64,000 nucleotides of DNA from Anolis carolinensis (taxonomy: Eukaryota): the NCBI RefSeq assembly GCF_035594765.1, contig NC_085843.1, positions 25,187,955-25,251,954 of the forward strand. Direction: 5' to 3'. The position numbers were made by a program, and so were the translations under genes. Positions 2,091 through 23,452 of this stretch are shown in pieces; positions within the stretch are counted from its first letter, which is position 1, and every line of letters begins with the position of its first letter. The notes below the pieces were generated by a model, which worked only from the letters and a program-made list of their open reading frames with translations, was not told where the DNA came from and ran no database searches.

Positions 2091-4090
2091 GCAAAGTAAT
2101 TGAAAAATTATTGGCATCAGTCAGAGTGAGATCCCTATGTTACATATCAGACAGACCCTTTTGTGGAGGCTGCACAACATATTTCAGCGGTCTCTCTGAA
2201 TATTTTCATAGTATATCGTGTAGATATGTTAATTTGACCTATGTTTTGTTATGATATGATATTTCTCATCCAGATTTTGTTTATAACAACTGTTAGTCAT
2301 ATACAATAAATATTTGACTAAAGTTGTTCCTATAATTTGGAATTCAGCTTGCAGCCATGACTAGAGTCTCTAATTTACTCGAAACTCAGGTACATTTGAT
2401 AGGGAGGAGGATACTTTCATGAAACTGCCTCCTTATTTACATGTCATGGTTTGAAGGAAACCATCATTACATCTATAGTGGACAAACGGAGACTTTTGCT
2501 TGTAATAGTGGCTATTGTATATTTATTTTTGAGATCTCTTATTTCTTTTTCTTTTTTTCAGAAATTCTGATCAGGATGCTACAACTGAGTTGGGCTCACT
2601 ATGCAAGCAAAAGAAAGTGATGAAATTCTGAGGTTGGAAGCAATTCCCATTGAAATTATGAGTAGAGGCTGATAGGTCAATGCCAAGAGAACTGTGAATC
2701 TATGTTTGTAGTTTAGTGATGCCCAGGACCTCTCTGGCTGAGCAATTTTAAGGCCCTCCCCTAAACTAGCCAGAATTCTGCAGGAGACAGCCAAAGGATT
2801 TCAGACAAAAAAAGGAATTTCCCTAGTCTTTCAGCTCTAGTGTGATACTGACCTCAATAACTGATAAAAAAATTTGTTGTGAATCTTCACTTTTTAACAG
2901 TTTGTTCTATTACTTGGATCACACACTCCAGTTAATCTTGTCCAATGAACATCATGGTAGTCCTCGTTTTATCAAATCAGCCAAATATGACCTACATAAG
3001 AGTATATGCCATTTGTCAAGGCATGAAAATGTTATGTTCCTCACAGAGAGCTTTTGTTTCCATTGCAATGGGACTGAGAAAGAAAGGGAAGAACAACTCT
3101 GCTTATTGGGTTATAAATTCACTTGCTAAAAATGCACATGCAAAAGGCCAAGGGTCTCCCATGAGGTTTGCAAACAGTGACAATCTCGTCACACAGCTTT
3201 CGACACACTATAAAGGGTGAGAACCACAAAGCAAAATGCAAACTTGTTCTGGTTTCTTGCACGTTCCTAGAAAGCACTTACTGAACAGTCCACCAGAATT
3301 TTCTCCCCCTAGAGAAATTGGAGATGAGGGAATATGCAGTCTACTGGGATTTGTTCCTATTTGCTCTTGTGTAGGCATTGGCAGACATTGTAACAGATGT
3401 CATGCCTTCAATTGAGTCATACCATTTTTATACTTGCTCTTCCTGTCACGGAAGACTCTGGAGAATCATCCCAATGCATGTACAGGTAAAGTTAAGAGTT
3501 ATGAAAAAATGAAAGTTTGCTTCTAGATGGGGAATGAGAACGCTCGTTATCATGTGTACATACTTGCATGGTCTTTGATATATTCATTGGGACACTTCTT
3601 ACACTCCTTCCACCTCCTGAGGCATGTCTAAGAGATGGTTTTCTGAGTGTACACTTCCATCCTCTGGAACTTCTCACCTTGGGGAAAGGTACTCCTCTGA
3701 GTTGTCCTTCAAATGCCATCAAAAGCATTTTAATCAAAAATGCCTTTGGCAACTGATTTTGTTTGCCGTGGAACAGGCCTTTTTGCACACTACTTGGATT
3801 TTATCTGTAGAGTCAAATATTCTGTCCAAAGAAACACTTTAACCAGATGCAATGGAAATGACACCAGGTGGGGGTTACTATAATCAAATGCTGCTTCCCA
3901 GATGTGCCTACTGAAAGATACACAATTTTTGTCTAGAATGAAATTTTTGGCTGATCCAACAGGCTATTCTTACATACATAACATGTTATTTCACAATTAT
4001 GGTGCTAGTTGTGGAATGGAACTTCATGAAAGGGAACTTATAAAATGTCTGCAGGTAAATAAGAGTACGTGGCATGAATATATACAGTAC

Positions 4091-4212
4091 CGAGTATGTT
4101 TGCTGTACACTGGAGAATTCCTGAGACATCTTCAGTTTCGTCATTGCCAGAGTGGTCTGTATAGGAGCATCGGTCAGAGATATTGTGGAAGTTCTTTTCA
4201 GCATCCCTGTAA
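4091..4212 (-). CDS. GUCY1A2: GUCY1A2 coding exon 3
   Basis: ctttccag|T TAC AGG... encodes YRDAEKNFHNISDRCSYTDHSGNDETEDVSGILQCTANIL(G). Donor G|gtactg; 122 bp; continues the frame from exon 2. Confidence 0.95.
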
Positions 4213-4859
4213 CTGGAAAGAAACATAAAACAGCAGGACTAAGATCACATATAGCATAAAGAATTATGTATCTAGAAAGCCATCTAGAAGAATCAAAATG
4301 CCTTCAAGAGGAATCCTGGCACATTTCTCTCGAAGTGTCAAAACAGATTTGGAATTATTCACTAATCTTGGCTGTCCAAACAGCTTCATGGCAAAGTTGG
4401 TCACCAAAATTTACTTATAAACATATCAGGCATTAGATTAGAGAACAAATCCTCCTATTGCTATTACCTGAGAGCTGTTTGAAGGGCAGGAAGCTATACT
4501 TAAGGAGAAAATATCAGTTTGTCCAGTAGGTTACTTCGGGACTTTGGAATCAGTGGCAGTTAATGGTTCCATGTCAGTAGGATAGTAAATACACACTGAG
4601 TTTTGATCCAAACTTTTAAAAAAACTACCCAAACTACTGTCAAAAAAAGATTAAGCATACATTTGAAAATAAACCCTGAAGTGCATTTACTGCCCCTATG
4701 ATAAGGAAGCCACAAGTTGTAATTGTTTACAACAGGACAAAGATCAGCAAATATTTCTAAAGAATGCAAGAATAATAACATAATTACAAACTCCTGGAGT
4801 TGGAAAAGAGGACAAGATCCCCATATTCCAACCCACTGCAGTGCATGAATACACAACTA

Positions 4860-5385
4860 AAGCAATCCTGATAATGTCCATTCAGATTTTGTTTAAAGAC
4901 TGTCAAAGACAGAGTCCACCATCTTTCAGGGCAGTCCATTCCACTGCCAAACAATGCTTTCAAATGTTTACATTGAACAGTTTTCTTGTCACCTGAATCC
5001 TTTGTATCATCGTCTAGTCCCCAGAGTAGCAGAAGGCAAGATCACTCCACCTTTTACATCAGTGGTTCTCAACCTGTGGGGCCTCAGCTGTTTTGGCCTT
5101 CAACTCCCAGAAATCCTAACAGCTGGTAAACTGGGTGGGATTTCTGGGAGTTGAAGGCCAAAATACCTGGGGACCCACAGGTTAAGAACCCTTTGTCCTA
5201 CATGATACTTTATAAATTTAAAGATGGCTATCACAGTTTAATTCCCAGTCTTCTCTTCTCCAAACATACCCAGTTCCTCAAGTCATTATTCATAAGGCTT
5301 GGTTTTCAGACCTTTGACTATTATGGTTGCCCTTCTATGAAACATTCCAGTCAATATCTCTCAAGTGTAGTGCAGTGCACATAAC
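4860..5385 (-). mobile_element. CR1 LINE 3' fragment interrupted by a hAT MITE
   Basis: Reverse complement resembles the CR1 ORF2 C-terminus (ggtctgaaaaccaagccttatgaa...ctgggtatgtttggagaagagaagactg). Confidence 0.7.
5060..5195. mobile_element. hAT MITE (CAGTGGTTCTCAAC family), degenerate copy
   Basis: Same ~134-bp palindromic element as at 6438 and other loci. Confidence 0.85.
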
Positions 5386-5554
5386 CCCCACCCCTCCAAC
5401 TCCCCCAACCCCTAACCCTGTATCCTTCTGAAATATACCTGCATAATATCAGGAAACTGGGGGGGGGGGGATATACTATAAATTGTCAGGGGCATGAATG
5501 AATTCCGTCTCATTCTCCACGGAAAGAGCCACACTGTCAACTGACATATAAACA

Positions 5555-5888
5555 AAGGTAAAAGTAAAGGTTTTCCCCTGACAGTAAGTAAAGTCATGCC
5601 CGCCTCTGGGGGTTGGTGCTCATCTCCACTTCTAAGCCGAAGAGCCGACGTTGTCTGTAGACACCTCCAAGGTCATGTGGCTGGCATGACTGCATAGAGT
5701 GCTGTTGCCTTCCTGCCAAGGCAGTACCTATTGATCTACTCACATTTGCATGTTTTTGAACTGCTAGGTTGGCAGAAGCTGGGGCTAACAGCAGGCGCTC
5801 ACTCTGCTCCCCGGATTCAAACCTGCAACCTTTTGGTCCGCAAGTTCAGCAGCTCAGTGCTTTAACACACTGCACCACTGGGGGCTCC
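5555..5888 (-). mobile_element. Sauria SINE, full length
   Basis: tRNA-like head GGAGCCCCCAGTGGTGCAG, (ACCTTT)n tail, 13-bp TSD TGACATATAAACA (5542-5554, 5889-5901). Confidence 0.92.
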
Positions 5889-6437
5889 TGACATATAAAC
5901 ATATTGCACTTAAATGAAAAACCCCTATATTGTATCTGAATTTTGCTTCCTTTTTACAGTTTCTCCCTCCTCTCTCTCTAGGCCCGACTGCTATCAGGAT
6001 TCTGGAAACTAGCAGGTTCTTGACAGGTTGTCTCAAGAGATTTCAGAAATGCATTTTTCTTTTTTATTTACAAACTTGTACACATGGAAACAATCTTCTG
6101 AAGATGCAGAAATGGCAATCATATTTTGAGGAATGCGAGCAATGAAATACAGCCAAATTTGTATACATCTCTTGATTGCTCAGGATAATAAATTCCCAAG
6201 AAGACGATGAAAAGGGATTTACAAACTAGGGTATTGGGAAGAAAATGGTAAATGAGTTTCAATACTGTAAAGAAGATCTGGGAAATATGCTGTATGAGGT
6301 CTCCCATCCATGTTTTCCACCTCCTTCCACTGTGGTTGTTTAGCCACTGTTCCTGTCATGGTGGCTGTGAAAACAGAGGCCAAGATAGCACATGCTGCCT
6401 ATGTGCTTGGTGTTCATGTATAGACAAGTATCTAGAC

Positions 6438-6569
6438 CAGTGGTTCTCAACCTGTATGTCCCCAGATGTTTTGGCCAACTCCCAGAAATCCTAACAGCTG
6501 GTAAACTGGTTGGGATTTCTGGGAGTTGTAGGCCAAAACACCTGGGGATCCACAGGTTGAGAACCACTA
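6438..6569. mobile_element. hAT MITE
   Basis: TIR CAGTGGTTCTCAACCTG; 8-bp TSD ATCTAGAC. Confidence 0.9.
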
Positions 6570-7349
6570 ATCTAGACGGTTCCCTGTGATTACTGGCCAG
6601 AGGAAGTTGAGACCACAGGGAAATTTTCACAGGATTTTTCTATGAGGCAAAACATTTACACTAAGTTTGTAGCTTATTTGGCGCACTCGGTTGTTATTTC
6701 TCTTTGCTTAGCCATTCTGCTTTAATATTCGGGGCGGGGGGGTTGAATTCAAAATTGCATGTCATTCTTCTTTTACACTTTCTCTGTAGCTGAAAGTTTG
6801 AGGATATTGCTGTGGACAGAGGCTTCACAGCTTGGCTATTGGGTCATCTGGTTCAGCCTAAGGCTATACAAACCTATAGCTTGTGAATGAAGCCTCCATC
6901 AGTGATAGCCCAGTCTATTTTACTGCTTGAGGCAAAAGAGAAAGCACCACCACTCTATCTCACCACATCAAGGGGCATAGCATCCAAAGCCTCCTGAAAT
7001 ATTCTGGCACTTTTCTTATTTTGAGTAACTAAAGTAAAGAAAAACAGAACTATACATTTAGTGCCTTTTCATAACACCTCTCTTTTGTCTGAGATCATAG
7101 CCTTGCTCGGTCTAACAGCAGGCTCAGCTTGGCCTCGGTCCACAGCTGGACTCAATAGAGAATCATCATCATTATAATCACTGGTGGCTGAATATGATTG
7201 TTGAATAAGAAAGCTCTCAACTTCCTAGAAGGGACCTTTTTGCTCTGCTAAATGAGAAAGAAGAGAAGGACAAAGATTCCTAAATGCAATTAAAACATGC
7301 ATTGACAATGACACCACATTGAGGATGAGGCAAGCATGTAATTGAGCAT

Positions 7350-9230
7350 GGCATGAAAGGCAAACACCATCAGGGGTATTTTATAGTACTGGAACTCCAC
7401 AACTGATATGCTTTCTCCATAGAGGGGACCCTGAGCTGGAAGGCAAATACTGTTCAAGGCACAGAACACCAGGGAAAATGCTCAGGTAGCACAATGCATC
7501 ACACCCACTGACTATCAGATGCTCTCTCTAACCCATATAAGAACTAATGATGCAGGCAGACAAGGCAAATAGAGCACCAAAGACTTATGCAGTTCTGAGT
7601 GGGAAATAGAAGAAACTGGAGGTAGATTTTTCAGCACTTTTCTGAAACTGATAACAAAATCTTCACAGATGTATTATGTGAATTGTTTATGGCTATCCTG
7701 GCACCTGTTAGAACTCTTGTCTCTGCAAGAAATGGAATGGCTGATATGTTTTTGACATGTCCTGCTGACAACGGCATAGCACAGATGCTGGAAGAAGAAA
7801 CAAGGTTATCTGCTGTTATAGACTTAAACAAGACCAACGGGCAAAAATTGATTCATAGGGCATAAATGATGGGAAGGTTGTGGAAAATTTGCCATGTCAC
7901 ATAATTTTTTTAACATATTTGGTTGTAAATCCTAGATTTCAGGAAAGTTGATTTGAAAGAGCATAGAGAAATGGTTACCACAGCTAGAAATTAAAAAGAA
8001 GAAAAGGATTCAAGAAGGATGAGAGATTTGGGAAACTGAAATAATCATGAAACAATTGCAAAATATTCCAGTAAGAAGGAAAAATGGAAAACATCTAAAG
8101 AGGCAAGTGTGACTGCAGAAGGATATCGGATCATTTAAAAGGAATGTCTCAAGGAGAAAGAAGAAGAGACATCAAAGAGATAATAAAAGATGGTAACAGC
8201 AAAATAGCTGCAACTTGAAAGAAAGACTTCTGTGGAATTCATTGTCCTTACCTGGAACAATAGGAAGCATCCTCTCCACAAGGATGATTAAATATTAATA
8301 GATAATTAACAGGTGATTAACAGGGATTTTTTTTCTATCTTGATTGTCATCTGCAAGGGAATTAGTAGTAAAGGAGGTGAGGAAAACAAGTATTGCAAGA
8401 AGGGACTTTCCTTCCCAGGAATAACTAAAGAGATGGTTGGAGAAGACTTAGCTGGTTTAGATGAATGTATATTCCCAGTTCCAAATGAGCTTTAAACCAA
8501 CCTGGTTGCTAAAAGGTCATTGTCTAAAATCTGTTCAAAATGCTTAGAGAACAGCAATCTTCCTGAAGACTGGGCAAATGTTCTTGTCTTCCAAAGTGAA
8601 GAATTTGGAAGACAATTTCAAAATTACAGACTCATTAGTCTAATGGCAAATTTCTAAATCAACTTAAGTAGCTGGCTTGAAATAGCCTACAAAAATATAT
8701 ATCTATTACTGAAAATTGGCATAGATTTATCAAGAGTAGTTTGTCCAAACCAACCATATTTTCATTTTGAGAGTTTAGTTGATTATGGTGATGTCACAGA
8801 CAGTGTTGTATATTTCAATTTGTGAAAAAGTTCCCACAGACAACATGTATCTTTGTAGATAAGATGGCAAATATGGATGATACTACCGGGGTTTTTTTTT
8901 AATCCACAGCTGGCTGAGTAGTCATTAAATGGCTCAATTTTGACTTGGAAGGAGATATCAAACAGAGTGCCACAGGGCTTCCATCTGGGTCCTGTGCTTT
9001 TCAACATTTTAATAAATAACGTGAACAAAGAAACAGAGCAGGTGCTTATCAAATTTGCAAGCAACATGAAGGTGGGAGAAATAGCTAATACCATGAAAGA
9101 TACATCTAAATTTAATCATGGAATACAGAAAGAATGAGGATTCAGATTTCAATACCTTGGAATGCTGGGCTGAAACTAGCAGGCGGAAATTCAACTGAGA
9201 TAATTGTAAAGTCTCCAGGGCAATACAAAA
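7350..9230 (+). mobile_element. Old, decayed CR1 LINE ORF2 (endonuclease to RT)
   Basis: Remnant peptides FLTCPADNGIAQMLEEETRLSAVIDL (endonuclease), EMVGEDLAGLDECIFPVPNEL, and WKEISNRVPQGFHLGPVLFNILIN...LIKFASNMKVG (RT). Many stops and frameshifts. Confidence 0.8.
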
Positions 9231-9609
9231 AAAATTGCAATATAGTGTTCCCTCACTACTTCGCGGTTCACTTTTCGCGGATTCACTGTTTTACGGTTTT
9301 TCAATAAACTCTAAAAGACTATTATAAATCATAAAAAAATACAATTTACAGCCTAAGGAAGGGAGGAAGGAGAAGCCAAAGAGAGAGAAAAGGAGCCCAA
9401 GTGGCAACAGGAGGAGGAGGAGGTGATTTATTAACACACAATTGGTTGATAAAGACTTAAATGCGAAGGATTTAGGCATTGTAAGATCAACCTGTGCCAG
9501 CAACATGTGCCTCTAGTGGGCATTTAGAAGCAATTAGCAGACATTGTTGCAAAATTGTAATTTTTCGCAATTTTTTTAAAAATGCAAAAAAAATAATTTT
9601 CCGACACCT

Positions 9610-9785
9610 AAAGTACCAGACTCCATCTGACCTTGGAAACTAAGCAAAGTTAGCCCTGGTTAGCTCTGGATGGGAGGAAGGAACTGGCAAAACCACCTCT
9701 GAAGATTCTTTGTCTAAGAGAATCCTATAAATCCATGAGATTGTTGTAAGTTTACAGATGACTTGATGGCACATGGACACACACA
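9610..9785 (+). mobile_element. 5S rRNA-derived SINE (SINE3) with RTE-like tail, decayed
   Basis: ccagactccatctgaccttggaaactaagcaaagttagccctggttagctctggatgggag resembles the 5S internal region. Similar copies on the minus strand near 51390-51545 and 54440-54620. Confidence 0.6.
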
Positions 9786-9811
9786 GGGTTTAGGACTAGA
9801 TAGCCCTTGAA

Positions 9812-9862
<51 letters not shown>

Positions 9863-9865
<3 letters not shown>

Positions 9866-11242
9866 TGAGAAAACTGCAACAACTAAGTTCTGGGAAGAAC
9901 TTTGGGAGAATAATAAGAACCACAACAAAAACGCTGGGTGGATAAAGGAGTATGAAGGAAAATTCTCACAGAACAAAATGGAACAGATGGAAATAACAAC
10001 TGAAATTATCAGCAAACAAGTGCAAAAAGTCAAGAACTGGACATCGCCTGGTAGTGATCAACTGCATGGATTTTGGCTCAAATATCTGATTAGTCTACAT
10101 GGAAAAATGGCCCAACAATTCAATGAGATGCTGCAAAAAGTATCAGTGAATGGTTAACAACTGGGTGAACATACCTGATACAAAAGGATTCAGCAAAAGG
10201 AGCAGCACCAGGAAACTACAGGCCAATAACGTGTCTGCCCACTACGTTTAAACTACTGACTGGCATCACAGCTGACTGAATTCAAGACTATCTTGAAGAA
10301 AAAACATCTTGCCAGATGAACAGAAAGGCAACAAACGGAAAAGCAGGGGCACAAAAGACCAATTATTAATTGACAAAATGATTCTGGAGAACTGTAAAAG
10401 AGGAAAACCTAATCTTCACATGACATGGATTGACTACAAAAAGGCCTTTGATTCACTCCCACACAGCTGGATCATCAAGTGCCTAGACGCCATTGGGATT
10501 TGTAAACACGTTGGCACTTTTATTGAAAACCTGATTGGAAATGAAAACTACGGACTTGTCAACATCAGAAGAGGAATTTTCCAGAGAGACTCATTGTCCC
10601 CATTGCTTTTCATTGTTGCCATGATCCCTCTGTCAACAATCTTACAAAAAAACAAGTCTCGGCTATCAAACATCTAAGAAATCTCACAAAATTTCACATC
10701 TGATGTACATGGATGACCTGAAGCTGTATGGGAAAACTGAAACAGAAATCCAGTCTCTGACTAACACTGTCCGAATTTTTAGTGCTGATATCAGCATGGA
10801 GTTTGGTTTGGACAAATGTTCGACAGTGGCATTGAAGAAGGGAAAAATCATTGAAAGCAAGGGCACAAATATGCCTAATGGCCAAACAATAAATTGACAC
10901 CAGCCAGAGGCCTATAAATATTTGGGCATATTACAGCTGGACAACATCAAGCATGAACATGTGAAAACTGTAGTCAGCAAAGAATACTCACAAAGGTTCA
11001 TAAAAATTCTCAAAAGCAAGCTCAATGGAGGCAATACCCATCAAGGCCATAAACACCTGGGTCATACCTGTCATAAGATATACAGCTGGTATCATAAACT
11101 GGATGTGGGCGGAACTGGACAATTTGGACAGAAAAATAAGAAAAATCATGACCATTATCATTCACTGCATCCTTGCAGTGAATGATAATGACAGGTATGG
11201 CCCACTGAAGAAAGATAATAACAATACTACTACTACTACTAC

Positions 11243-11277
<35 letters not shown>

Positions 11278-11349
11278 TATGGGAAGTGTTCAACTTGTGA
11301 TTTGGTGATACAAAATCCAGCATATCTATCTTGTTTGCTGTGCCATACA

Positions 11350-11350
<1 letters not shown>
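9863..11350 (+). mobile_element. R4/Dong-like non-LTR retrotransposon, 5'-truncated and internally deleted, within (TAA)n
   Basis: RT motifs [83 protein letters not shown] with frameshifts. Flanked by (TAA)n runs. Confidence 0.85.
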
Positions 11351-11401
<51 letters not shown>

Positions 11402-12328
11402 TTGTACCCCACTTTTCTCCCAGGATTGGGACCCAAGGCAGCTCACAGTCTTAAAAACTATGTAACTTAAAATCTGACATGATATAATTGTTAAAATAGA
11501 ACTAAATATTACAACTATTAAAACAAATATTGAAACAAATAAAATTTTGTTAAAAACAATTCCTGGGTATCTTTTCTGACTTTATGATTCTTTGGTTCTA
11601 ATCTAAGAAAAAGGAAAGGGGAAAGAGGAGATAAGACATTATCTCTGCCCAACAGTGCTGGTGCTTCATCCAACTACAAATCCCAGAATTCCAATGCGGT
11701 TAAAGTGGCATAAAATGGCACTAATTATACAGTGTAGATGCACCCAAAGACATACAGACATAGATAATTTCTTCAGAATTCAAGGTCTAGGTATCCATAT
11801 TTTAAAAGTGCAGTTCTGTTTAAACAGGGTTTCTGCTCCCCTTTCATCCACATGTGATCCACACTTTACATCCATCTCTTTGCAAGGATGCACAGGTAAA
11901 TCCCCAAAGAGCAGCATCTATTTCTCTTACTTCAGCCCTGCAGACATGCCAGCGCTATCAATGCCAAAGAAAGCATTCAGAGTTTGACTTGACAAAAATG
12001 TTACAGAACACATAAAGGTAAATTCCTAAGACTCAGAGAGTTTCAGAAGCCTGAAATGAATTTTAAGTACATACTTCTGACTTGACATAAACAGTATGCC
12101 AAAGCTACCACGGTGTCTGAATAATTACAGAAAAGTTGAGGGCACAATCTAGCATTTACCAATGTTACTTAATCAGTGTGGCCCTGGGAGATGATACATC
12201 TATATCATATGCTAATAGTGGTTGAGGTAGTGGTCAGAATCCTATGGCTCTCTGGGTGTTCTTAAACTGCAATTCCCAACAGCCTTAGCTTGTGAGGAAT
12301 GCTGGGAGCAGCAGTTCAACATCTAGAT

Positions 12329-12463
12329 CAGTGGTTCTCAACTTGTGAGTCCCCAAGTGTTTTAGCCTACAACTCCCAGAAATCCCAGCTAGTTTACCAT
12401 CTGTTAGGATTTCTGGGAGTTGAAGGCCAAAACATCTGGGGACCCACAGGTTGAGAACCACTG
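12329..12463. mobile_element. hAT MITE
   Basis: Same TIRs; TSD ATCTAGAT/ATCTAGAG. Confidence 0.9.
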
Positions 12464-13759
12464 ATCTAGAGGGACATAAGGGAATTATGACTGAGGTGAA
12501 GCCACATGATTGTTGGGTTTGAAGCATTGATTCTCATTTGATGCTGCTATTTGTCCAGTTTTTAAAGCAAAGACAGTTGTATGTGCCTTTAAGTCGCCTG
12601 TAAACTCATAGTGACCTAATGAATTTCAAACAGTTTCTTTAAGCAAGGAATACTCAGAAGTCTAACCAAAAATGAACAGAGTGGTACTGTTACTTCCCTT
12701 GATTTGAACACTAACCAAGTTAGTGTAACCTAGAGTTGCATTGCCTTTTCTGGCTGCCATTTCACACTGTTAATTCATGTTTAGTTTGTGGTCTATTAAG
12801 ACACCTAAATAGAGAATTGAAAGCAAAAGAACCCCATTTCTTTCCATGGGTCTGTTCTTAGTAGGACTGATGTTTTACTTAGCTCACTAGATATTGTTCA
12901 CTGATCAAATGACTTGTTTCATACTTAATCAAATTTTGCCAATGTTTTAAACAAACTAAGACAGCTGAATTTTTAAAAATTGCAGTGATATTTTTATGCT
13001 AGTATAAAAGCAGGATATAAAATAAATAAACAGATTGTAAGCATAATTGTGCATTTAAGTTGTATATTCTATAAACCACAATGAAAACAGAAAATTTTCA
13101 GGGAATACCAATAAAAATGACCGAGTGGGATATTTCTCTTTATGCTTCCCTTTGTTTCAACCTCCTGTTTTAACCATTTTTTAATGTAATCAAATGCTAG
13201 TCTTGTAGAAAAGCATTTAGCAGAACAAGATAAGACGCAAAACCACAACTGCATACTCTCTTCATTAAGATCTAAGGTAATACATGATGAACACAATACA
13301 AAAGCAGTCAGACTGAGATCTGAAATCACTGCTACAGTTATACAAAAGGAACTGACCTATTAATAAATAAACCATTACATGACTCATTCTACACGAAGGT
13401 CACAGGACTGTATCTATTCAGTGCTAAAAATATCAATCTTGAAGCCAGGTAAAGAAATTCCTCTCTTGTTTTGTTTGTGTGTTGTTATTTTTTTAATGAA
13501 AGATTAATTGCATTCTTAACATAAATTAAGTACTTTATCCAAAAATAGTTATTTCTTTACTTATTGGCTAATTTTCCAAGTACCAAAGAACTGTAGAATA
13601 TGCAATGGACAGAATCCAATCATTAAAAAAACACAATTGCAGATGAATACAATTCACCAGCCTACATAAATATTACCCGATACAGCCCTCAAATAATTAA
13701 AAAAAAATATAAACCTACACAATAAGTCCTTTCGATATCATGTCATTGAATGCATGCTG

Positions 13760-13915
13760 CAATCTGTATGACTTTGAGCAAATCAGACTCTCTCAGCCTC
13801 AGAGAAAGGCAACGGTAAACATCTTTTGAGCAAATCTTTCCATGAAAACCCTGTGATAGGTTCGGCTTAGGGTTGCCATAGGTCAAATATGACTTGAAGG
13901 CACACAGCCACAGCA
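13760..13915 (+). mobile_element. Squamate SINE 3' part with Bov-B-like tail
   Basis: ...gaaaaccctgtgataggttc...gggttgccataggtc...gacttgaaggcacaca. Many degenerate relatives (about 22070-22240, 35290-35460, 42000-42190, 50630-50730, 59280-59480). Confidence 0.55.
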
Positions 13916-14161
13916 AGGCAAGGTAACCTACTTTGTAATAGCTTTGAAAAATCAGAAAGCAGCCCAAGCTATCTGAGTCAACCCAAATGTACTCCTTGTT
14001 AAGTTTTAAATACCTTCTTCTTCCCATCCATGCAACACCTTCCCCCTCAACACTTTTCCTTTCTGGTTGTAGTGGTGGAAACAAACTTCAGCATGTCAGG
14101 CTGCAAATCATTCTGGAATCATAGTTTTCTCAAGAATCAAAGTAATTAGAGTAGGTCTTAG

Positions 14162-15019
14162 TGTGATGTCTCATGGGCCTTGTAGTCCCGTTCCTAGTGT
14201 TATTATGGCAGACGAGGAGGAAAACATGGGATTTCCACCAGTTCAGCTTGAATCGGAGCCTCTCCACCTGGAGGATGTTTGTCCTCAGGAAGTTAACCAA
14301 ACAAGCCTTGGGCAGAATTCTCCCCCGTTTTCCCGAAAGGACAATTATAATAGAGATAGAGGAGTCAGGGAGGCAAATCGCTGGAGTCTCAGAATCGCTG
14401 CCAAACAATTAGCTGATTAGGTCTGCTTCCCTTGGGAAATTCTAAGGAGTCATGCATCTGGACAGAGTTGGGTTTCGCTTCTTGTTCTCCAGGGAAAGTG
14501 TTCTGTTGGCGGGAAAACAAGACCCTATATAGGGGTTTTGCCGCAAGGGGAACCTTGCGGAGTCAATTGATCAGCTTGAGAGAGAGATCGTGTGTGGACT
14601 ACGTATTCCTTGTTCCCTGCTTCCCGGATCTAGTTTCAAGTCTTGCCTTGTCTCACGTTTTGCCACGGACCTTGTTTCATGCTTCAAGTTGCCACGTTTC
14701 AAGTCTTTGATCCAGCCAAGAATCAAGCTTAAGTTCCAGCCTTGTTGTCAAGCTTCAATGGACTATAAGACCTTGTCATCTCCCCACACTTCTGCTTGGC
14801 AAAGTGTGTGTTTCGGTTAATGGATTATAACTTTGAACTCTAATATCTTATATTGGACATTATTTTCCTGGACTATAATTGGCCTTTCCTGAAAGGTCTG
14901 CTTCTGAACTTTATTCTTCACTTGTTTTTATTGACTTTATATATTTCTATAATAAAGATATTAGATAGATTCTGGCCTCTGTGTAAGGTTATTGGTGCTC
15001 TGCAGCCTGGGTCCTGACA
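14162..15019 (+). repeat. 5' LTR
   Basis: Starts TGTGATG and ends TGACA. TATATA at 14526, AATAAA at 14951. Four visible differences from the 3' LTR. Confidence 0.97.
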
Positions 15020-15031
15020 GTTTGAATCCGC
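15020..15031 (+). other. Primer-binding site, self-priming type (not tRNA)
   Basis: GTTTGAATCCGC lacks the TGG expected of a tRNA PBS and is complementary (9/10) to GCGGAGTCAA at 14557-14566, about 30 nt downstream of the LTR TATA. Confidence 0.75.
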
Positions 15032-15062
15032 CACCTTAAGCACCAAACAACCTAAGGCCAGA

Positions 15063-16049
15063 ATGTCTACAGGAACCGGAGCGGAGGCTCAACCGGCCAG
15101 TTACACCATTTCCCAAGAAGAATTCAATAGAATCCGTGATACTCTCCGAACGCAGGAGGGTGAAATAATGGGCTTGAAGGAACGCGGAGTGCGTCTTCCT
15201 GCCCTAGCGCTACCAACCAAGTTTTCCGGAGAAGCTTCCAAGGTTCATGTTTTCCGTCGCCAGTGTCAGGCGTACTTAGAAGCCCGCCAAGCCGAATTTG
15301 CCCAAGAAGATGTCAAAGTGGCGTGGATCTACAGTCTCCTAGATGGGCCTGCAGCCAATTGGGTGACGGCGCTGTTTGATGCGGGTTCCACGCACCTAAG
15401 CTCTGCGCAAACTTTCCTGAACCACCTTAGAAAGACCTGGGGGATCGAAGACGACGAGGAGGCGGCCGGCCATAAACTCCGGCGTCTCTTCCAAGGGGAC
15501 AGGCCGTTGTCCCGGTACATAGCCGAGTTCCGGGTGCTGGCTCAGAACACCGGCTGGAACGATATAGCCCTTAGAGGACAGTTTCGCGAGGGCCTCAACT
15601 TCGAGATGCAGGAAGAGATCTCTAAGGTGGATCCTCCAGGGACTCTTGAGAGACTCATCAGCCAGTGTCTACGTGCCGAAGCCCTGATAGCCAACAAAAA
15701 ACAGTGGCTCCGAGGCCAGAGTGGGAGAGCCGGAGTGAAACCCCCCGCTTCTGCCAGCGTTCAGCCACGTCCAGCATGGAGAGTTCCACCGCCAGCCCCA
15801 AACCCCGTGGGTAGCGAGGAGGAGCCGATGCAGTTGGGCAATGTCCGCCCCAGACTGGATGTTGCCGAAAAGGCCCGCCGCCAACTTTTGAATTTGTGTT
15901 GGTACTGCGGGAATGGGGGCCACTTCGCCAGAGAATGTCCAGCCAAAAGAAAGCCCGCCGCCCGCCTGGCGGCGGCGTCCTCCGTGGAGCCAGAAACGGC
16001 CGAGGCGGCTGGAGCCAAGCCGGCGGGGGAAGCCAGCGACCGGGCGTAG
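15063..16049 (+). CDS. gag: Gag (PEG10/RTL-like capsid plus CCHC zinc knuckle)
   Basis: Intact 328-aa ORF with an LPTKFSGE...FRRQC capsid motif, LFQGDRPLSRYIAEFR, EPMQLG and a CWYCGNGGHFAREC knuckle. Confidence 0.95.
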   Translation: MSTGTGAEAQPASYTISQEEFNRIRDTLRTQEGEIMGLKERGVRLPALALPTKFSGEASKVHVFRRQCQAYLEARQAEFAQEDVKVAWIYSLLDGPAANWVTALFDAGSTHLSSAQTFLNHLRKTWGIEDDEEAAGHKLRRLFQGDRPLSRYIAEFRVLAQNTGWNDIALRGQFREGLNFEMQEEISKVDPPGTLERLISQCLRAEALIANKKQWLRGQSGRAGVKPPASASVQPRPAWRVPPPAPNPVGSEEEPMQLGNVRPRLDVAEKARRQLLNLCWYCGNGGHFARECPAKRKPAARLAAASSVEPETAEAAGAKPAGEASDRA

Positions 16050-19000
16050 AGAGGCTCGCCAACCCGGTCAAAAACCCCACTCAAGAGCCGCAAACCGGGG
16101 TCCTATTTCTCCTGGTGGTCACGCTGTGGTCAGCGAAAAAAGGACCCGTCATGATCCATGCCATGATAGATTCAGGGGCAACAAACAACTTCATCGATAG
16201 AGAGTATGCCGACTCTCTGGGATTACAATATCATGATTTCAAGAATGCCCGGGTGGTGCAGGCCATAGATGGCCGTCCCCTAAAGACAGGTCCAGTAAGC
16301 CAATGGACTGAACCCACCAGGATGTGGATAAGGGAACACATGGAAGAAATTTCTTTCTTCGTTACCGAGGTTCCCCACTTCCCTGTGATTTTGGGGATTC
16401 CATGGCTGACACTCCACGACCCAAACATCTCCTGGTCCAACAGAGAACTACAGTTTGCCTCAAGATATTGCCAAAACCATTGTCTAGTAGCCAAGGTCTG
16501 TCATGCCACGGACGCTGAGCCCATCATCACCTTGCCCAAGAAATATTCGGACTTTTGGGATGTTTTCAATAAAAAGGAAGCCGAGAAACTACCCCCACAT
16601 AGACCCTACGACTGTGCCATCGACTTGGTGGAGGGGGCCCCGATTCCGCGAGGACACCTCTACTCCCTGACTGAACCAGAGCAAGAAGCTCTCAGGGAGT
16701 TTATAGAGTCAAACCTTCGCAAGGGGTTCATCATACCCTCTCAATCCCCAGCTGCTTCCCCAGTGATGTTTGTGAAAAAGAAGTCAGGGGACCTACGCTT
16801 GGTTGTGGACTATAGAGCATTGAACAATATCACGAAGCGGAATCACTACCCCCTGCCTTTGATCTCAGACCTATTAGACCGGCTCCGAGGGGCCAAGGTT
16901 TACACCAAGCTGGATCTCCGGGGGGCTTATAATCTAGTTCGCATCAGAGAAGGGGACGAATGGAAAACCGCCTTCCAGACCAAATTCGGATTATTTGAGT
17001 CCCTAGTCATGAATTACGGATTATCTGGAGCTCCCGCAACATTCCAGCATTTTGTCAACGATATCTTCCAGGATTATCTAGATCGGTTCTTGATCATATA
17101 TTTGGACGATTTTTTGGTGATTTCTAGATCACAATCGGAACACGAGCAACACGTCAGAATGGTGCTACAACGATTGCGGGATCATGGACTATATGCCAAG
17201 TTAGAAAAATGCACCTTTGATCTGCAAGAAGTAGACTTCCTGGGATACCGCGTCTCGCCACTAGGGCTCTCCATGGACCCGGCAAAGGTTTCAGCAGTAT
17301 TGGAATGGCGGGCGCCAACCAACAAGAAGGAAGTGCAGCGCTTCTTGGGGTTTGCAAACTACTACCGCAAATTCGTCCCAGACTTCGCTCGCTGGTCGGA
17401 CCCAATCACCAGCTGCATCCGTGGGAAACAGCCTTTCCGCTGGACGGAGCAAGCAGAGAAAGGGTTCCAGCAACTAAAGAAGTTATTCATGACCCAGCCA
17501 ATTCTACAGCACCCTGATTCTAAAACCCCTTTTGTTGTGCAGGCTGACGCCTCTGATGTGGCAACTGGGGCTATACTCATGCAACCAATGGGAGGACATC
17601 TTCATCCTTGTGCCTATTACTCCCGTCAACTAACAGCCCCAGAGAGAAATTACACTATTTGGGAGAAAGAACTTTTGGCCATAAAGGCAGCCTTTGAAAA
17701 TTGGAGACATTGGTTAGAAGGGGCCAAATTTCCCATTGAGGTTCATACTGATCATCGAAATTTGGAACACCTAAGGACCGCACGAAAGCTAAATCAAAGG
17801 CAGCAGCGCTGGGCTTTATTCTTTGAACGTTTTGACTTCCAGATCCATTATGTAACCCCGGCTCAGACCAAGCAGGCAGATGCTCTATCACGGAAACCAG
17901 AGTATGCTGCAGGATGCAGAGAGATCTCCGAATCTCGATTGCTGCAGCCCGAAAACTTTGCCACGCTCACAGTGGGAAACACCAAATCCACTTCAATTAA
18001 ACCAACTCCCTCTAACCCAGAACCCCTTTGCGCTCAAGAAATTAGAGCCAGTCAGCAGGCAGATGCCTGGGCTCAAGAACAGATTCGCCAAGGACTATGT
18101 TTCCCTTTCTCACTTAAGGATGGGCTACTATGCTACAGGAATCATGTTTACATCCCTCCAGGTCCAGGCAGAGAAAAGGCACTTCATCTGTGTCATGACT
18201 GCAAGCCAGCAGGGCATTTTGGACTTTTTAAAACCATGCACTTGATCCTACGAGATTTCTGGTGGCCCAAGATCCGCAAGGATGTGGAGAAATATGTCAA
18301 TACCTGCCCGGTATGTCAGCGTTCCAAGACAAGAAGGGAGAAGCCGTCAGGGCTACTGCATCCCCTTCCTACTCCATCTCGCCCATGGGAGATAATTTCC
18401 GCGGATTTTATCACTGACCTACCACCCTCCCTTGGATTTACCACGATACTAGTAGTGGTGGACCTTTTTACCAAGTTAGCCCATTTCATTCCCTGCGATG
18501 GTCTCCCCACAGCCAAAGAGACTGCAGATTTATTCCTCCAACATGTTTTCCGACTACACGGATTGCCCAAGAGTTTAGTCACTGACCGTGGATCTCGTTT
18601 CTGGAAAGCACTACAGAAACTATTGGGCATAGACTCTCGTTTATCTTCAGCTCACCATCCCCAAACGGATGGGCAAACTGAGCGCACCAATGCCACTTTG
18701 GAACAATACTTTCGCTGTTATGTAAACTACCAACAGGACAATTGGGCTTCCCTATTACCTCTATCGGAGTTTGCTTACAACAATGGTGTCCAGGCTTCAA
18801 CTAAAGAAACCCCGTTCTTTGCAAACTACGGCTTCCATCCACGTTTCTTCCCTTCTGTCATTGAAACTTCAGAAGTCCCTGCAGCGGAGGACTGGCTGCA
18901 AGAACTCACAGCGGTGCAACAACTCTTGCACCAACAACTGGATCAAGCCAAGGAGGACTATAAACGCCACGCTGACAGCCATCGCCAGCCGGGCCCTGAG

Positions 19001-19489
19001 ATCAAGGTAGGAGATCGGGTTCTGTTGTCCACTCGCTTTTTGCCCTCCCACTGTCCTTGCCGGAAGTTAGATGCCCGCTTCATTGGTCCCTACCCAGTGG
19101 TGGCGCAGCTTAACCCCGTGACTTTCAAACTCCAACTTCCGCGCTCCATGCGCATTCATCCGGTGTTTCATCGTTCCCTGCTCCTTCCGGCGGATGGGGT
19201 ATGCCCCGATGTGGACCGGCCGGCCCCCACCCCTGTTTCGGTGGATGGGGAGGAGGAATTCGAGTTTCGGGACATTTTGGATTCTCGCTTCCATCGCCGC
19301 CGCCTCCAGTATCTCATTGACTGGGTGGGTTTTGGCCCCGAAGAACGCTCTTGGGAAGACGCTTCCACGGTCCATGCCCCCGACTTAGTTCGCCGCTTCC
19401 ATCAGGCCTACCCTGCCAAGCCGCGGCCCCGCGACTCAAGGAGAGGGGCCTTGTTGGAGAGGGGCCTTGAGGGGGGGGGGATAGTGTGA
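16025..19489 (+). CDS. pol: Pol (protease, RT, RNase H, integrase, chromodomain) in the -1 frame relative to gag
   Basis: The open frame 15896-19489 contains AMIDSGAT (aspartic protease), YLDD (RT), QADAS (RNase H), HHCC plus DDE plus GPY (integrase) and EEEFEFRDILDSR...YLIDWVGFGPEERSWE (chromodomain). Start placed at the inferred frameshift site. Confidence 0.93.
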   Translation, partial: GGSQRPGVERLANPVKNPTQEPQTGVLFLLVVTLWSAKKGPVMIHAMIDSGATNNFIDREYADSLGLQYHDFKNARVVQAIDGRPLKTGPVSQWTEPTRMWIREHMEEISFFVTEVPHFPVILGIPWLTLHDPNISWSNRELQFASRYCQNHCLVAKVCHATDAEPIITLPKKYSDFWDVFNKKEAEKLPPHRPYDCAIDLVEGAPIPRGHLYSLTEPEQEALREFIESNLRKGFIIPSQSPAASPVMFVKKKSGDLRLVVDYRALNNITKRNHYPLPLISDLLDRLRGAKVYTKLDLRGAYNLVRIREGDEWKTAFQTKFGLFESLVMNYGLSGAPATFQHFVNDIFQDYLDRFLIIYLDDFLVISRSQSEHEQHVRMVLQRLRDHGLYAKLEKCTFDLQEVDFLGYRVSPLGLSMDPAKVSAVLEWRAPTNKKEVQRFLGFANYYRKFVPDFARWSDPITSCIRGKQPFRWTEQAEKGFQQLKKLFMTQPILQHPDSKTPFVVQADASDVATGAILMQPMGGHLHPCAYYSRQLTAPERNYTIWEKELLAIKAAFENWRHWLEGAKFPIEVHTDHRNLEHLRTARKLNQRQQRWALFFERFDFQIHYVTPAQTKQADALSRKPEYAAGCREISESRLLQPENFATLTVGNTKSTSIKPTPSNPEPLCAQEIRASQQADAWAQEQIRQGLCFPFSLKDGLLCYRNHVYIPPGPGREKALHLCHDCKPAGHFGLFKTMHLILRDFWWPKIRKDVEKYVNTCPVCQRSKTRREKPSGLLHPLPTPSRPWEIISADFITDLPPSLGFTTILVVVDLFTKLAHFIPCDGLPTAKETADLFLQHVFRLHGLPKSLVTDRGSRFWKALQKLLGIDSRLSSAHHPQTDGQTERTNATLEQYFRCYVNYQQDNWASLLPLSEFAYNNGVQASTKETPFFANYGFHPRFFPSVIETSEVPAAEDWLQELTAVQQLLHQQLDQAKEDYKRHADSHRQPGPEIKVGDRVLLSTRFLPSHCPCRKLDARFIGPYPVVAQLNPVTFKLQLPRSMRIHPVFHRSLLLPADGVCPDVDRPAPTPVSVDGEEEFEFRDILDSRFHRRRLQYLIDWVGFGPEERSWEDASTVHAPDLVRRFHQAYPAKPRPRDSRRGALLERGLEGGGIV
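19469..19484 (+). other. Polypurine tract of the Gypsy element
   Basis: G-rich purine run (GA + G10 + ATAG) immediately 5' of the 3' LTR. Confidence 0.9.
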
Positions 19490-20342
19490 TGTCTCATGGG
19501 CCTTGTAGTCCCGTTCCTAGTGTTATTATGGCAGACGAGGAGGAAAACATGGGATTTCCACCGGTTCAGCTTGAATCGGAGCCTCTCCACCTGGAGGATG
19601 TTTGTCCTCAGGAAGTTAACCAAACAAGCCTTGGGCAGAATTCTCCCCCGTTTTCCCGAAAGGACAATTATAATAGAGATAGAGGAGTCAGGGAGGCAAA
19701 TCGCTGGAGTCTCAGAATTGCTGCCAAACAATTAGCTGATTAGGTCTGCTTCCCTTGGGAAATTCTAAGGAGTCATGCATCTGGACAGAGTTGGGTTTCG
19801 CTTCTTGTTCTCCAGGGAAAGTGTTCTGTTGGCGGGAAAACAAGACCCTATATAGGGGTTTTGCCGCAAGGGGAACCTTGCAGAGTCAATTGATCAGCTT
19901 GAGAGAGAGATCGTGTGTGGACTACGTATTCCTTGTTCCCTGCTTCCCGGATCTAGTTTCAAGTCTTGCCTTGTCTCACGTTTTGCCACGGACCTTGTTT
20001 CATGCTTCAAGTTGCCACGTTTCAAGTCTTTGATCCAGCCAAGAATCAAGCTTAAGTTCCAGCCTTGTTGTCAAGCTTCAATGGACTATAAGACCTTGTC
20101 ATCTCCCCACACTTCTGCTTGGCAAAGTGTGTGTTTCGGTTAATGGATTATAACTTTGAACTCTAATATCTTATATTGGACATTATTTTCCTGGACTATA
20201 ATTGGCCTTTCCTGAAAGGTCTGCTTCTGAACTTTATTCTTCACTTGTTTTTATTGACTTTATATATTTCTATAATAAAGATATTAGATAGATTCTGGCC
20301 TCTGTGAAAGGTTATTGGTGCTCTGCAGCCTGGGTCCTGACA
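19485..20342 (+). repeat. 3' LTR
   Basis: 858-bp direct repeat of 14162-15019. Confidence 0.97.
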
Positions 20343-20471
20343 CTTAGGGAAATACATTTCCCAGGTACTGTTTACAACCTGTCACCAGAAAGAAAGAGTG
20401 AGATAGACCTCTCTCCTTGTCTCTTTCCCCTTGTTCTTTTGATGCTGCCAATGGGAGTATAGTGTCTAGAT

Positions 20472-20604
20472 CAGTGGTTCTCAACCTGGTCCCCAGATGT
20501 TTTTTGCCTTCAACTCCCAGAAATCCTAACAGCTGGTAAATTGGCTGGGATTTCTGGGAGTTGTAGGCCAAAAACATCTGGGGACCCCAGGTTGAGAACC
20601 ACTG
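20472..20604. mobile_element. hAT MITE inserted in CR1
   Basis: TIRs plus a perfect 8-bp TSD GTCTAGAT. Confidence 0.92.
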
Positions 20605-20710
20605 GTCTAGATCAAAGGAAGTAATTGTGCCTCTCTATTCTGTTTTGATTAGATCTCACCTGGAATACTGTGTCGAATTATGGGTACCACAATTCAAGAT
20701 GTATACTGTA

Positions 20711-20971
20711 TTTTTTTTTCATGTCAGGAGCAACCGAAGTTGCTTCTGGAGTGAGAGAATTGGCCGTCTGCAATGACGTTGCCCAGGGGACGCCCAGATG
20801 TTTTGATGTTTTACCATCCTTGTGAGAGGCTTCTCTCATGTCCCCGCATGGAGCTGGAGCTGATAGAGGGAGCTCATCCGCACTCTCCCCAGGTGGGATT
20901 CGAACCTGGCAACTTTCAGGTCAGCAACCCAACCTTCCAGTCACTTAGTCCACTACGCCATCTGGGGGCTC
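20711..20971 (-). mobile_element. Anolis SINE2-like tRNA SINE with poly(A) tail
   Basis: A/B boxes (GGTTCGAATCCC), poly-A tail, TSD TATACTGTA. Confidence 0.85.
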
Positions 20972-21429
20972 TATACTGTATTGATAAACTGGAATGTGTC
21001 CAGAGCAGGGCAACTAAAATTATTAAAGGTCTAGAGACCATGCCCTATGAGAAGCATCTTAAAGAGCTAGTCATGTTTTGCCTGTAGAAAAGAAGGTTAA
21101 AAAGAGATATGACATCCATGTATAAATATTTGTAAGGATGCTATAAGGAAGAAGGAGCAGACTTGTCTTCTGATGCCCTGGAGACTAAGGAAAGGAGGTT
21201 CAACTCTAACATTATGAAGAACTTCCTGAACCATAAGAGCTGTTCAGCATTGGAACTCACTGCCTCAGAGTGTAGTGGAGGCTTTTAAACAGAGGCCGGA
21301 TGACCAACTGTCAGGGGTACTTTGATTGTGCTTTTCCTGCATGGCAGGGAGATGGACTAGATGGCCCATATGGCCTTTTCCAACTCTATGATTCTATGAT
21401 TCTCCCTTAAATTGCTGGTACTGCCACTA

Positions 21430-21766
21430 AGGACCTTATCAGATGGGCTGGGGTAAAGCGGGGGACAGTGGGGGAAATCGTGGGACAGTGGAGGGAACCA
21501 TCAGGCTCTGTACTTTGCTGTCGGGGTTTATGATGTTTCTTCCCATGCAGTTTCCCCATCTGTCCCCGCTTCCTCTTCATTTCCTCTTCCTTCTTCAATG
21601 AGGAGTCAGACAAACACCTGACTCCTCTGAGTTCCACTGCCACAATGCTGATGCAATGGAGCCCCACAGATCCTGCGAGAAATAGCCCTGCATCATGTGA
21701 TGGACTCCATTGGAATCCATTCTGCAGCAGAGAGAAGCAGGGAAGACCTGCATCTGATAAGGTCCT
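21430..21766. mobile_element. MITE with 16-bp perfect TIRs (Harbinger-like)
   Basis: AGGACCTTATCAGATG (21430-21445) and CATCTGATAAGGTCCT (21751-21766). Confidence 0.7.
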
Positions 21767-22247
21767 ATGTGTAACTTCTACACTGTTTGTAGAAGTGAGG
21801 GGAAGCTACAAACTGGGTTACAACTCAATCAAAAGAAATATTTAGCAGTGTAGTAATCACACAGTTCTGTTCCATGCTCCTAAAACCCACACTTTTGAGA
21901 TCAAAATCAAAATCCAATTATTACTCACAAATAGAAATAGATTCCTTGAAAAATTAATCAGTAAGGCAGCACTTATACACATTCCGTTGAACCACTGAGT
22001 CTACTTCATTTGGGACTGACAATAATTCTACTTAGAAGTAGACATTTGGCAATTTTGATGTTGTTCAGTACCTTCAAGTCATTTCTGACTAAGGGCAACC
22101 CTAAAGTGAACCTATCACCGGATTTTACGGGTAATATTTCTTCAGAAAAGGTTTGCCTTTGCTACCTTCTGAATCTGAGAGGGTGGGACCTGCTCAATGG
22201 GTTTTAATGACTGACTTGGGATTTGAGCTGTGTTTTCCATAGTGTTA

Positions 22248-22398
22248 GGGCCCTTCCACACAGCCATATAACCCAGAATATCAAGGTAGAAAATCCCGCA
22301 ATATCTACTTTGAACAGAGTTATCTGAGTCCACACTGCCACATATTCCAGTTCAAAGCAGAAAATGTGGGATTTTATTGAGCTGTGAGGAAGGGGCCA
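22248..22398. mobile_element. Harbinger-like palindromic MITE (GGCCCTTCCACACAG family)
   Basis: TIRs ggcccttccacacagc / gctgtgaggaaggggcc. Relatives at about 27159-27298, 30078-30177, 30724-30875 and 50062-50208. Confidence 0.7.
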
Positions 22399-23390
22399 TA
22401 GTCACAAGCAATTACACCATTCTGGTCCTCTTGATGATATTACTACTTTGAACACAGACTGTTGCATGCCAGAGTGTTTTCAATAAGATGTGGCAAAATC
22501 ATGCATAGGAGAGGGATGGGAAGATAGTTACACTTGCTTTGTTTTGGCGAATGAAAAAAAGAGACTATACTGTGCATAGTATTACTGTTGCCTTCAAGTC
22601 ATTTTTAGACTTAAGTAAATCCGGAACAAACCTAGCAATCAAGTAGGTTCCAAAAGCTCTTTTGCTTCCAAGTTTTCACTTGTTCTCTGAACCACAGCAA
22701 GGTTGGCACCAATCATATTTCCAAGAGGAGATAACTGGGGTGCGACAGCAGAATAGCTTAACTCCTGTGTCATCCCACACTATATGGTTAGGACACAGTG
22801 AAAGGTCTCAAGAAAATTTACAAAATAGATTGTGCCTTGTGCTTTCATAAGGAATGCATAGATAAGCCAGATGCTCTGGATTCTTAGACCCCCTGATCTT
22901 TCCCATTTTGGTTGAAATTTACAAAAGCCATAACTAATGTACATGAAGGATAATGCCTCATGGCTAGCCCTGTCATGAGGCATTATTTTAGCAACTCCCT
23001 ATTGCTTCTTACTGCCAGGCATTTGCCACCGAAACAGACAGCTGATAGCAGAAGGCAGCAGTCTACTTCACCATGACATGTAGAGAATCTGGTGCCTTAC
23101 GCCTTGCTTCACCTGCCTTGCCAGGAGGGCAATCACATGGGGGAAGTGTGGAGTGTGTGACTTTTCCCCAAGGATTGTGCAACATGGGAAGCCTCCCATG
23201 TTGCCAGGGTGACAGCAGCATGCCGGTTCCACCCCTCTACACCCACGGAGCTGGCACAACATCATTTGATGGTAGCCGGCCAGCTTTGTGGGTGACTGGG
23301 GCTAAATCAGCATTTGCCACCAAATCTAGCCCCCTATGATGAGGTCGTAGTCATACATATGCTAGTTTAGGAGAAATTAGGTCTACTTAC

Positions 23391-23452
23391 CCCATAACTT
23401 GATGCTCATAATGCTGCAGTGTCCTCTGGAGTGTCTGCCTTATGGTCTGAGG
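23391..23452 (-). CDS. GUCY1A2: GUCY1A2 coding exon 2
   Basis: ttctgtag|CCT... encodes PQTIRQTLQRTLQHYEHQVMG (human recalled as PQTIQQTLKRTLQYYEHQVIG). Donor GG|gtaagt; 62 bp; phases fit exons 1 and 3. Confidence 0.95.

Follow-up and report, generated by a model that had tools for sequence, protein, structure and literature searches.

The window analysed here, a stretch of 64,000 nucleotides from Anolis carolinensis (contig NC_085843.1), contains a retrotransposon with long terminal repeats (LTRs), and the question raised by this locus is which molecule primes its reverse transcription. All mature tRNAs end in CCA, and a primer-binding site (PBS) of the tRNA type therefore needs TGG. A preliminary description of the sequence pointed out that the bases after the 5' LTR lack this signature and proposed that the element primes itself with the 5' end of its own RNA, inside a long duplex formed by U5 and the leader.

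Self-priming is an established mechanism in fission yeast, where RNase H cleavage releases the first 11 bases of Tf1 RNA for use as the primer (PMC7175516), and the PBS at the end of the cDNA is a copy of that primer (PMC11042837). Self-priming and a three-duplex 'pretzel' are described as common to the Tf1/sushi group in fungi and vertebrates (bioRxiv 2022.12.06.519325; PMC6317226; PMC4600332), and the group-wide inference is credited to Butler et al. 2001 (cited via bioRxiv 2022.12.06.519325 and PMC6317226). According to the available text of bioRxiv 2022.12.06.519325 and PMC4600332, experimental self-priming concerns yeast Tf1 only, and that of the vertebrate relatives was inferred from complementarity; the available portion of PMC2864245 holds nothing further on vertebrates. 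The comparisons presented below, between families and between individual copies, argue that the family of this element primes reverse transcription in the manner of Tf1, without a tRNA, a reading to which we give a probability of about 0.82.

The element and its host locus

The element at 14162-20342 is a young Ty3/gypsy chromovirus with a chromodomain, located antisense inside intron 2 of GUCY1A2, between coding exons 2 and 3. It had been labelled an intronic lizard chromovirus, and both parts of the label hold, given that GUCY1A2 exons flank it on both sides on the minus strand and that the Pfam order and the C-terminal chromodomain fit. The features of the locus are the following.

45743-46045, 23390-23452 and 4080-4211, minus strand: coding exons 1 to 3 of GUCY1A2 (tblastn, query lizard GUCY1A2 P0123)
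4212-23389, minus strand: host intron separating coding exons 2 and 3 of GUCY1A2, ends approximate (tblastn)
14157-14161, plus strand: left target-site duplication, 5 bp, same as 20343-20347
14162-15019, plus strand: 5' LTR, 858 bp, TG...CA (LTR comparison)
15063-16049, plus strand: gag, 328 aa, DUF4939/Retrotrans_gag, one CCHC knuckle (ORF and Pfam)
15935-19489, plus strand: pol, in frame -1 relative to gag, with PR, RT, RNase H, IN, SH3 and chromodomain (ORF and Pfam)
19469-19480, plus strand: polypurine tract, 4 nt upstream of the 3' LTR (sequence)
19485-20342, plus strand: 3' LTR, 858 bp, with primer base 3 (19882) unlike the 5' LTR
20343-20347, plus strand: right target-site duplication, same as 14157-14161

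The two LTRs show 4 differences over 858 bp. Pfam recognizes on pol, in order, RVT_1, RT_RNaseH, Integrase_H2C2, SH3_Tf2-1 and Chromo (E 9e-8), with rve and protease matches below their cut-offs, and zf-CCHC in Gag; pol overlaps gag and is read at -1. Green anole supplies the closest named proteins, at 87% for Gag and 94-96% for RT-RNase H. A 328-aa Gag that is 87% identical, P0001, carries the source name 'calmodulin-lysine N-methyltransferase isoform X2', which is either a misannotation or the trace of a host transcript running into an element. Compared with three relatives, the integrase is 4 residues short behind residue 886, and this gap lies two residues past what we take, from the DDE motif, to be the second catalytic Asp.

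No canonical slippery heptamer was found upstream of the gag stop within 16023-16070, an interval in which 44 of 52 copies have a G-run; two complementary, interleaved stretches come after it and might fold into a frameshift pseudoknot. Two MITE-like short elements with long terminal inverted repeats (12322-12470 and 20465-20612) flank the retrotransposon. Within 14100-16300, no Rfam family reaches its gathering score.

The primer and its binding site in this copy

All the strings and pairings named in the preliminary description are present in the sequence, and those that concern priming are listed here.

14526-14531, plus strand: TATA-like box, TATATA, 31 nt upstream of the primer (sequence)
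14557-14566, plus strand: candidate self-primer, predicted transcript nucleotides 1-10 (PBS complement; T/G initiator-like step)
14951-14956, plus strand: AATAAA poly(A) signal, kept in 54 of 56 aligned copies
15020-15021, plus strand: spacer of 2 nt from the LTR end to the PBS, an offset shared by six families
15022-15031, plus strand: PBS proper, with pair 6 (15026) broken in this copy (sequence and copy comparison)

The 12 bases after the LTR (15020-15031) thus include a PBS that pairs at 9 of 10 positions with GCGGAGTCAA at 14557-14566, as had been claimed, the single unpaired position being 14562:15026. No other site in the LTR comes within 2 mismatches of the PBS complement. When 4,300 internal 10-mers were treated as mock PBS, 160 (3.7%) had a complement with at most 1 mismatch anywhere in the LTR and 4 (0.09%) had such a complement 25-36 nt behind the TATA box. 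The first base of TATATA varies across copies (T in 10, A in 17, G in 2 and a gap in 1; n=30). The position of AATAAA at 14951 implies a long R of about 420 nt and a short U5; the copies differ far more from one another in the middle of this long R (14628-14800) than in the primer or at the U5 end.

The broken pair weakens the primer:PBS duplex from -16.7 kcal/mol for a full match to -10.5 kcal/mol in this copy. The variant at 15026 is near-private, with 2 junctions in G000, and the only other junction that has it is L253/L327. A compensated sublineage marked by this variant was considered and ruled out, as L253/L327 is 87% alike and has both LTR primers unchanged. With PBS pair 6 broken and an integrase core short of 4 residues, this copy is probably impaired. 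The proposal of self-priming applies to the family, and it gains support from covariation between six families, mirrored changes, a constant TATA position and the lack of a tRNA match.

Six families with six primers

Five further families (B to F, the family of the present element being A) were obtained by Pfam searches of G000 and are 46-62% identical in RT-RNase H. The six families have six different primers of 10-12 nt and one geometry, in which each family has its own PBS at LTR end +2 and a perfect complement of it inside its own LTR. This complement lies 30-32 nt behind a TATA-like AT-rich box in all six families, the motif having been hand-picked for each, and a pyrimidine-purine step is found at -1/+1 of every predicted start. 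Primer and PBS are about 100 to 730 nt apart. Between sister families, the primers differ at 2 positions (B and D) or 6 positions (E and F), and every change is matched in the PBS.

The number of loci behind these complements differs between families. Family B has an 11-nt complement in 25 of 28 loci (it is lacking in L041, L050 and L052), and the older loci of family C have an 11-nt run in 2 of 7. The complement is 11 nt long in 8 loci of family D, with two more loci unscorable, in 5 loci of family E and in 4 loci of family F, and it reaches 12 nt in the family-E locus L189 through a matched 1-nt extension; the survey of D, E and F covered 27 loci, among them 11 without an LTR pair or refined end and L186, whose LTR is truncated.

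Some features of single families or loci are worth recording. All primers but that of family E end in CAA, and four of the six begin with GC, with a middle that is free to change, and these ends may reflect a preference of RNase H or RT. In L050 (178-1046), a family-A-like LTR (87%) lies upstream of a family-B PBS and gag, and the B primer was not found there; the probable cause is a solo LTR that sits inside a B LTR. In family E (L168-L170, L185, L188 and L189), a single long frame covers about 1,600 aa and the LTRs measure 302 bp, and its leader contains a short palindromic hairpin, with different loop letters in L189, that might be a dimerisation signal.

Linked changes in individual copies of family A

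Within family A, G000 holds at least 4,572 LTR-PBS junctions that pair fully (10/10). Among the 29 closest copies, 26 pair at 10/10, one has a wobble, one is without the primer region and one has a PBS deletion, and in a wider set the common primer is present in 41 of the 43 scorable copies that have the common PBS. Copying of the primer into the PBS should carry a primer change over to the PBS, and mirrored changes of this kind are indeed seen. The two CpG variants of the PBS occur at 41 (G>A) and 53 (C>T) junctions. The 41 copies with the G>A variant, 38 of them scorable, were compared with 70 controls that have the common PBS, and a matching primer change in the 5' LTR was found in 7 of 38 against 2 of 70 (p=0.009). 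For the second variant, 30 of the 53 copies were looked at, 27 were scorable and 2 were matched. Pooling both variants gives 9 of 65 matched and 1 of 65 crossed (p=0.008). These counts are small, and some rows are tandem copies.

Four of the mirrored copies are changed in both LTRs, which are 98.7-100% identical to each other, whereas independent decay would be expected to yield 0.006-0.04 copies changed in both LTRs and the PBS. The mirrored copies represent about five unrelated backgrounds that are 76-87% alike between groups, and three of them (L317, L321 and L324) are 93-98% alike. The other 31 of the 38 scorable G>A copies have no mirrored primer change; this and the about equal frequency of the two CpG changes indicate that most PBS variants are post-insertion decay. 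An excess of wobble-tolerated G>A changes over C>T changes was rejected as a candidate signal (41 and 53 junctions). Taken with the matched changes between families, the linkage in family A provides the covariation between the start of R and the PBS that self-priming predicts among genomic copies.

Two sets of copies in this collection are arranged head to tail, L276-L278 (G000:C3, junctions 5,453 nt apart) and L300-L301 (5,394 nt apart). They resemble the integrase-independent tandem insertions reported for Tf1 (PMC11042837).

A host tRNA as an alternative primer

The LTR match could also be incidental, with a host tRNA, tRNA half or tRNA fragment acting as the primer. The primers of A, B, C, D and F, which end in CAA, are one letter off CCA, and the compared set of 49 distinct host tRNAs (27 anticodons) spans 15 amino acids only, two points that would leave some room for such a primer. 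Against these 49 tRNAs, the best 3'-anchored match of the PBS is 2 nt and the best internal run 6-8 nt, and the PBS has no TGG, as had been reported. Priming by a tRNA would moreover require the TGG that pairs with the universal CCA end, and it would have to accommodate six PBS sequences that each match their own LTR perfectly and individual copies that mirror their PBS changes in the LTR. We regard it as extremely improbable and keep to priming by the element's own RNA.

The U5-leader stem

Three helices between U5 and the leader had been reported around the PBS, and all three are present.

14969-14978, 14986-14990 and 14992-14999, plus strand: 5' arms of the U5-leader stem (sequence, 56-copy alignment)
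15055-15064, 15049-15053 and 15039-15046, plus strand: 3' arms of the stem, in the same order (sequence, 56-copy alignment)

The fold of U5 and leader alone is modestly above chance (z -1.98; 7 of 200 shuffles), and the duplex itself reaches z -2.87 (4 of 200 shuffles). Its conservation was followed in 56 copies of family A picked by a Gag profile. Of 66 loci taken for scoring, 10 are not family-A junctions. Column variation in these copies is 6.6% in the stem, 16.8% in the loop and 9.7% in early gag. In the alignment, 91.8% of the stem cells are paired, and 26 cells are changed on both sides against 9.2±2.0 in shuffles (0 of 500 reach this value), counts that take no account of the relatedness of the copies. 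Changes on both sides affect only 4 stem pairs, a number reached by 206 of 500 shuffles, and the clearest covarying pair is 14972:15061 (C-G in 43 copies, T-A in 12). The ends of the stem are weak: the pair 14986:15053 is kept in 14 of 56 copies and the pair with the A of the gag AUG in 21 of 56. The expected covariation across the stem was hence found in part, as conservation with some double changes in family A, limited to 4 pairs and fading at the stem ends.

A U5-leader helix of 10 bp, made of other letters, is present in family C (p=0.003). In families B, D, E and F, no U5-leader duplex was found clearly above chance, and a long duplex common to all families was discarded as unsupported in these four. 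As to a second duplex, in which bases ahead of the PBS would pair with the LTR, there is no above-chance run in A, and short runs occur in B, D and E.

ViennaRNA assigns the primer:PBS helix a probability of 0.64-1.0 in families B, D, E and F, and of 0 in all six family-A leaders that were folded. The value for family A follows from the pairing of the primer into a loop closed by the U5-leader stem, which makes the whole a pseudoknot that cannot be drawn by the program, so that the stem is preferred. A small U5:PBS hairpin also competes in these family-A folds.

A proposed route for self-priming and the source of the primer

The steps by which family A may prime its reverse transcription can be outlined on the model of Tf1. 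Transcription would start at about 14557, as the spacing of TATA box and initiator suggests, and the pairing between U5 and leader, which is seen in the sequence and partly covaries, would hold the PBS in a loop of 39 nt. The free 5' end would then pair into this loop and produce a pseudoknot similar to the Tf1 'pretzel', provided that both pairings form simultaneously. By analogy with Tf1, RNase H would cut after base 10, and RT would extend the primer across the 2-nt spacer, U5 and R. Finally, plus-strand synthesis would copy the primer and rewrite the PBS, a step whose footprint is statistical; through this rewriting, primer and PBS would stay matched while drifting.

The footprint in the copies would fit a 5'-end primer acting in cis, a primer from a second RNA or one from the 3' R copy alike. 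If the primer came from a co-packaged second RNA or from the 3' R copy, one mutation would reach both LTRs and the PBS in one round, and the 4 triple-changed copies agree with this expectation when set beside the only copy found with both LTRs changed and a common PBS (L328), whose class is at the level expected from chance decay (0.7-4). However, L328 is also the intermediate predicted by the Tf1 route, and several rounds of replication would likewise leave more triple-changed than double-changed copies. The listing behind this contrast comprises 100 of 172 variant LTRs and all 86 of one subclass, and its pattern missed L316. Furthermore, all six families place the primer at TATA +30 to +32, which would be needless for an internal primer. 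A second RNA or the 3' R as the source is in our view quite unlikely, and the 5' end of the RNA acting as in Tf1 is preferred.

Possible further roles of the stem

The stem around the PBS might serve other purposes as well. The preliminary description suggested that the fold switches the RNA between translation and reverse transcription by hiding the gag AUG. The outer helix (14969-14978/15055-15064) does overlap the AUG, and what falls short is the pairing of its A, kept in the minority of copies given above. An alternative helix was obtained in another register.

14957-14961, plus strand: 5' arm of the alternative helix, which would pair the gag AUG (15063-15067) (RNAalifold, no covariation)

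In most leaders of family A the AUG is paired in the predicted folds, and the helix 14957-14961/15063-15067 is kept in 55-56 of 56 copies for each pair, as would be expected if an outer stem hid the AUG and made the RNA leave translation for packaging and reverse transcription. This helix nevertheless shows no compensatory change, and its arms are otherwise constrained, one as the flank of the poly(A) signal and the other as the start codon. The lack of an above-chance long duplex in B, D, E and F also counts against such a switch, and a scanning ribosome must cross about 500 nt of leader anyway. On these folding models, an AUG switch is doubtful.

Another possible function relates to polyadenylation. 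Retroviruses must suppress the poly(A) site of the 5' LTR, and RNA structure contributes to this suppression (PMC3694450). A U5-leader stem that masks the cleavage site and the GU-rich element could block premature polyadenylation in a similar way, and the masking would be confined to the 5' LTR because the leader follows only this LTR. In family A, AATAAA lies about 395 nt past the predicted start, the arms at 14969-14999 span +13 to +43 behind it, where the cleavage site and GU-rich element are expected, and the core of the stem covaries at 14972:15061. On the other hand, no significant stem was found in B and D, whose R is longer, and the stem is already accounted for as a duplex of the Tf1 type. 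Masking of the poly(A) site is also unlikely.

These ideas can be combined into a single switch, specific to the 5' LTR, in which the stem would bury the poly(A) site and the AUG while showing the PBS, with the primer passed between packaged RNAs or from the 3' R. The combination is improbable. If it were true, one mutation would rewrite both LTRs and the PBS together, and thousands of copies would record the base-by-base re-coding of a primer in a vertebrate element.

Relation to known self-priming elements and significance

The sequence features place the element in the Tf1/sushi group, for which self-priming has already been predicted in print. Its RT and RNase H group with elements of lizard, snake, frog and fish, and in an RT-RNase H tree (37 rows, midpoint root), from which named sushi-ichi, Amn and Tf1 sequences are absent, vertebrate elements and a chytrid element are joined with support 98/90, to the exclusion of grass elements. 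Amn-ichi, a member of the vertebrate V-clade, was described from green anole by Piskurek et al. (PMC2774666), and Sushi LTRs have AATAAA near their 3' end (PMC3601003). With the vertebrate members of the group, the present element shares a chromodomain integrase, the -1 overlap of gag and pol, AATAAA near the LTR's 3' end and the lack of a tRNA PBS.

Like Tf1 and Tf2 of S. pombe, where self-priming has been shown, and Tj1, Tosmo1-3 and Tcry1, where self-priming is predicted, the element is a chromovirus whose PBS is complementary to the first bases of its (predicted) RNA. A PBS-adjacent duplex with the LTR and a PBS copied from the primer into cDNA are further likenesses to Tf1-type elements, the copying being suggested here by the mirrored changes. 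In contrast to Tf1, which has a primer of 11 nt, one frame and no CCHC, it has a primer of 10 nt, a CCHC knuckle, and gag and pol in two frames that overlap (-1); of the two flanking duplexes, only one is clear, and the element is known from sequence alone. The tRNA-primed plant chromoviruses and retroviruses also have TG...CA LTRs, a PBS few bases past the LTR, a polypurine tract and U5-leader pairing, but their PBS matches the 3' end of a tRNA (PMC6317226), whereas the PBS described here matches its own LTR.

The mechanism itself is not new. In the open-access literature, no report was found on the primer of a lizard element, nor was a six-family comparison or a copy-level footprint of this kind found in print, and the value of the present case lies mainly in this footprint and in a countably large family. 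Six families with re-coded primers, together with young copies in which a primer change was apparently copied into the PBS, provide stronger indirect evidence for self-priming in a vertebrate. With its at least 4,572 junction copies, the family also offers a census of linked changes by which the priming route can be tested with no more than genome data.
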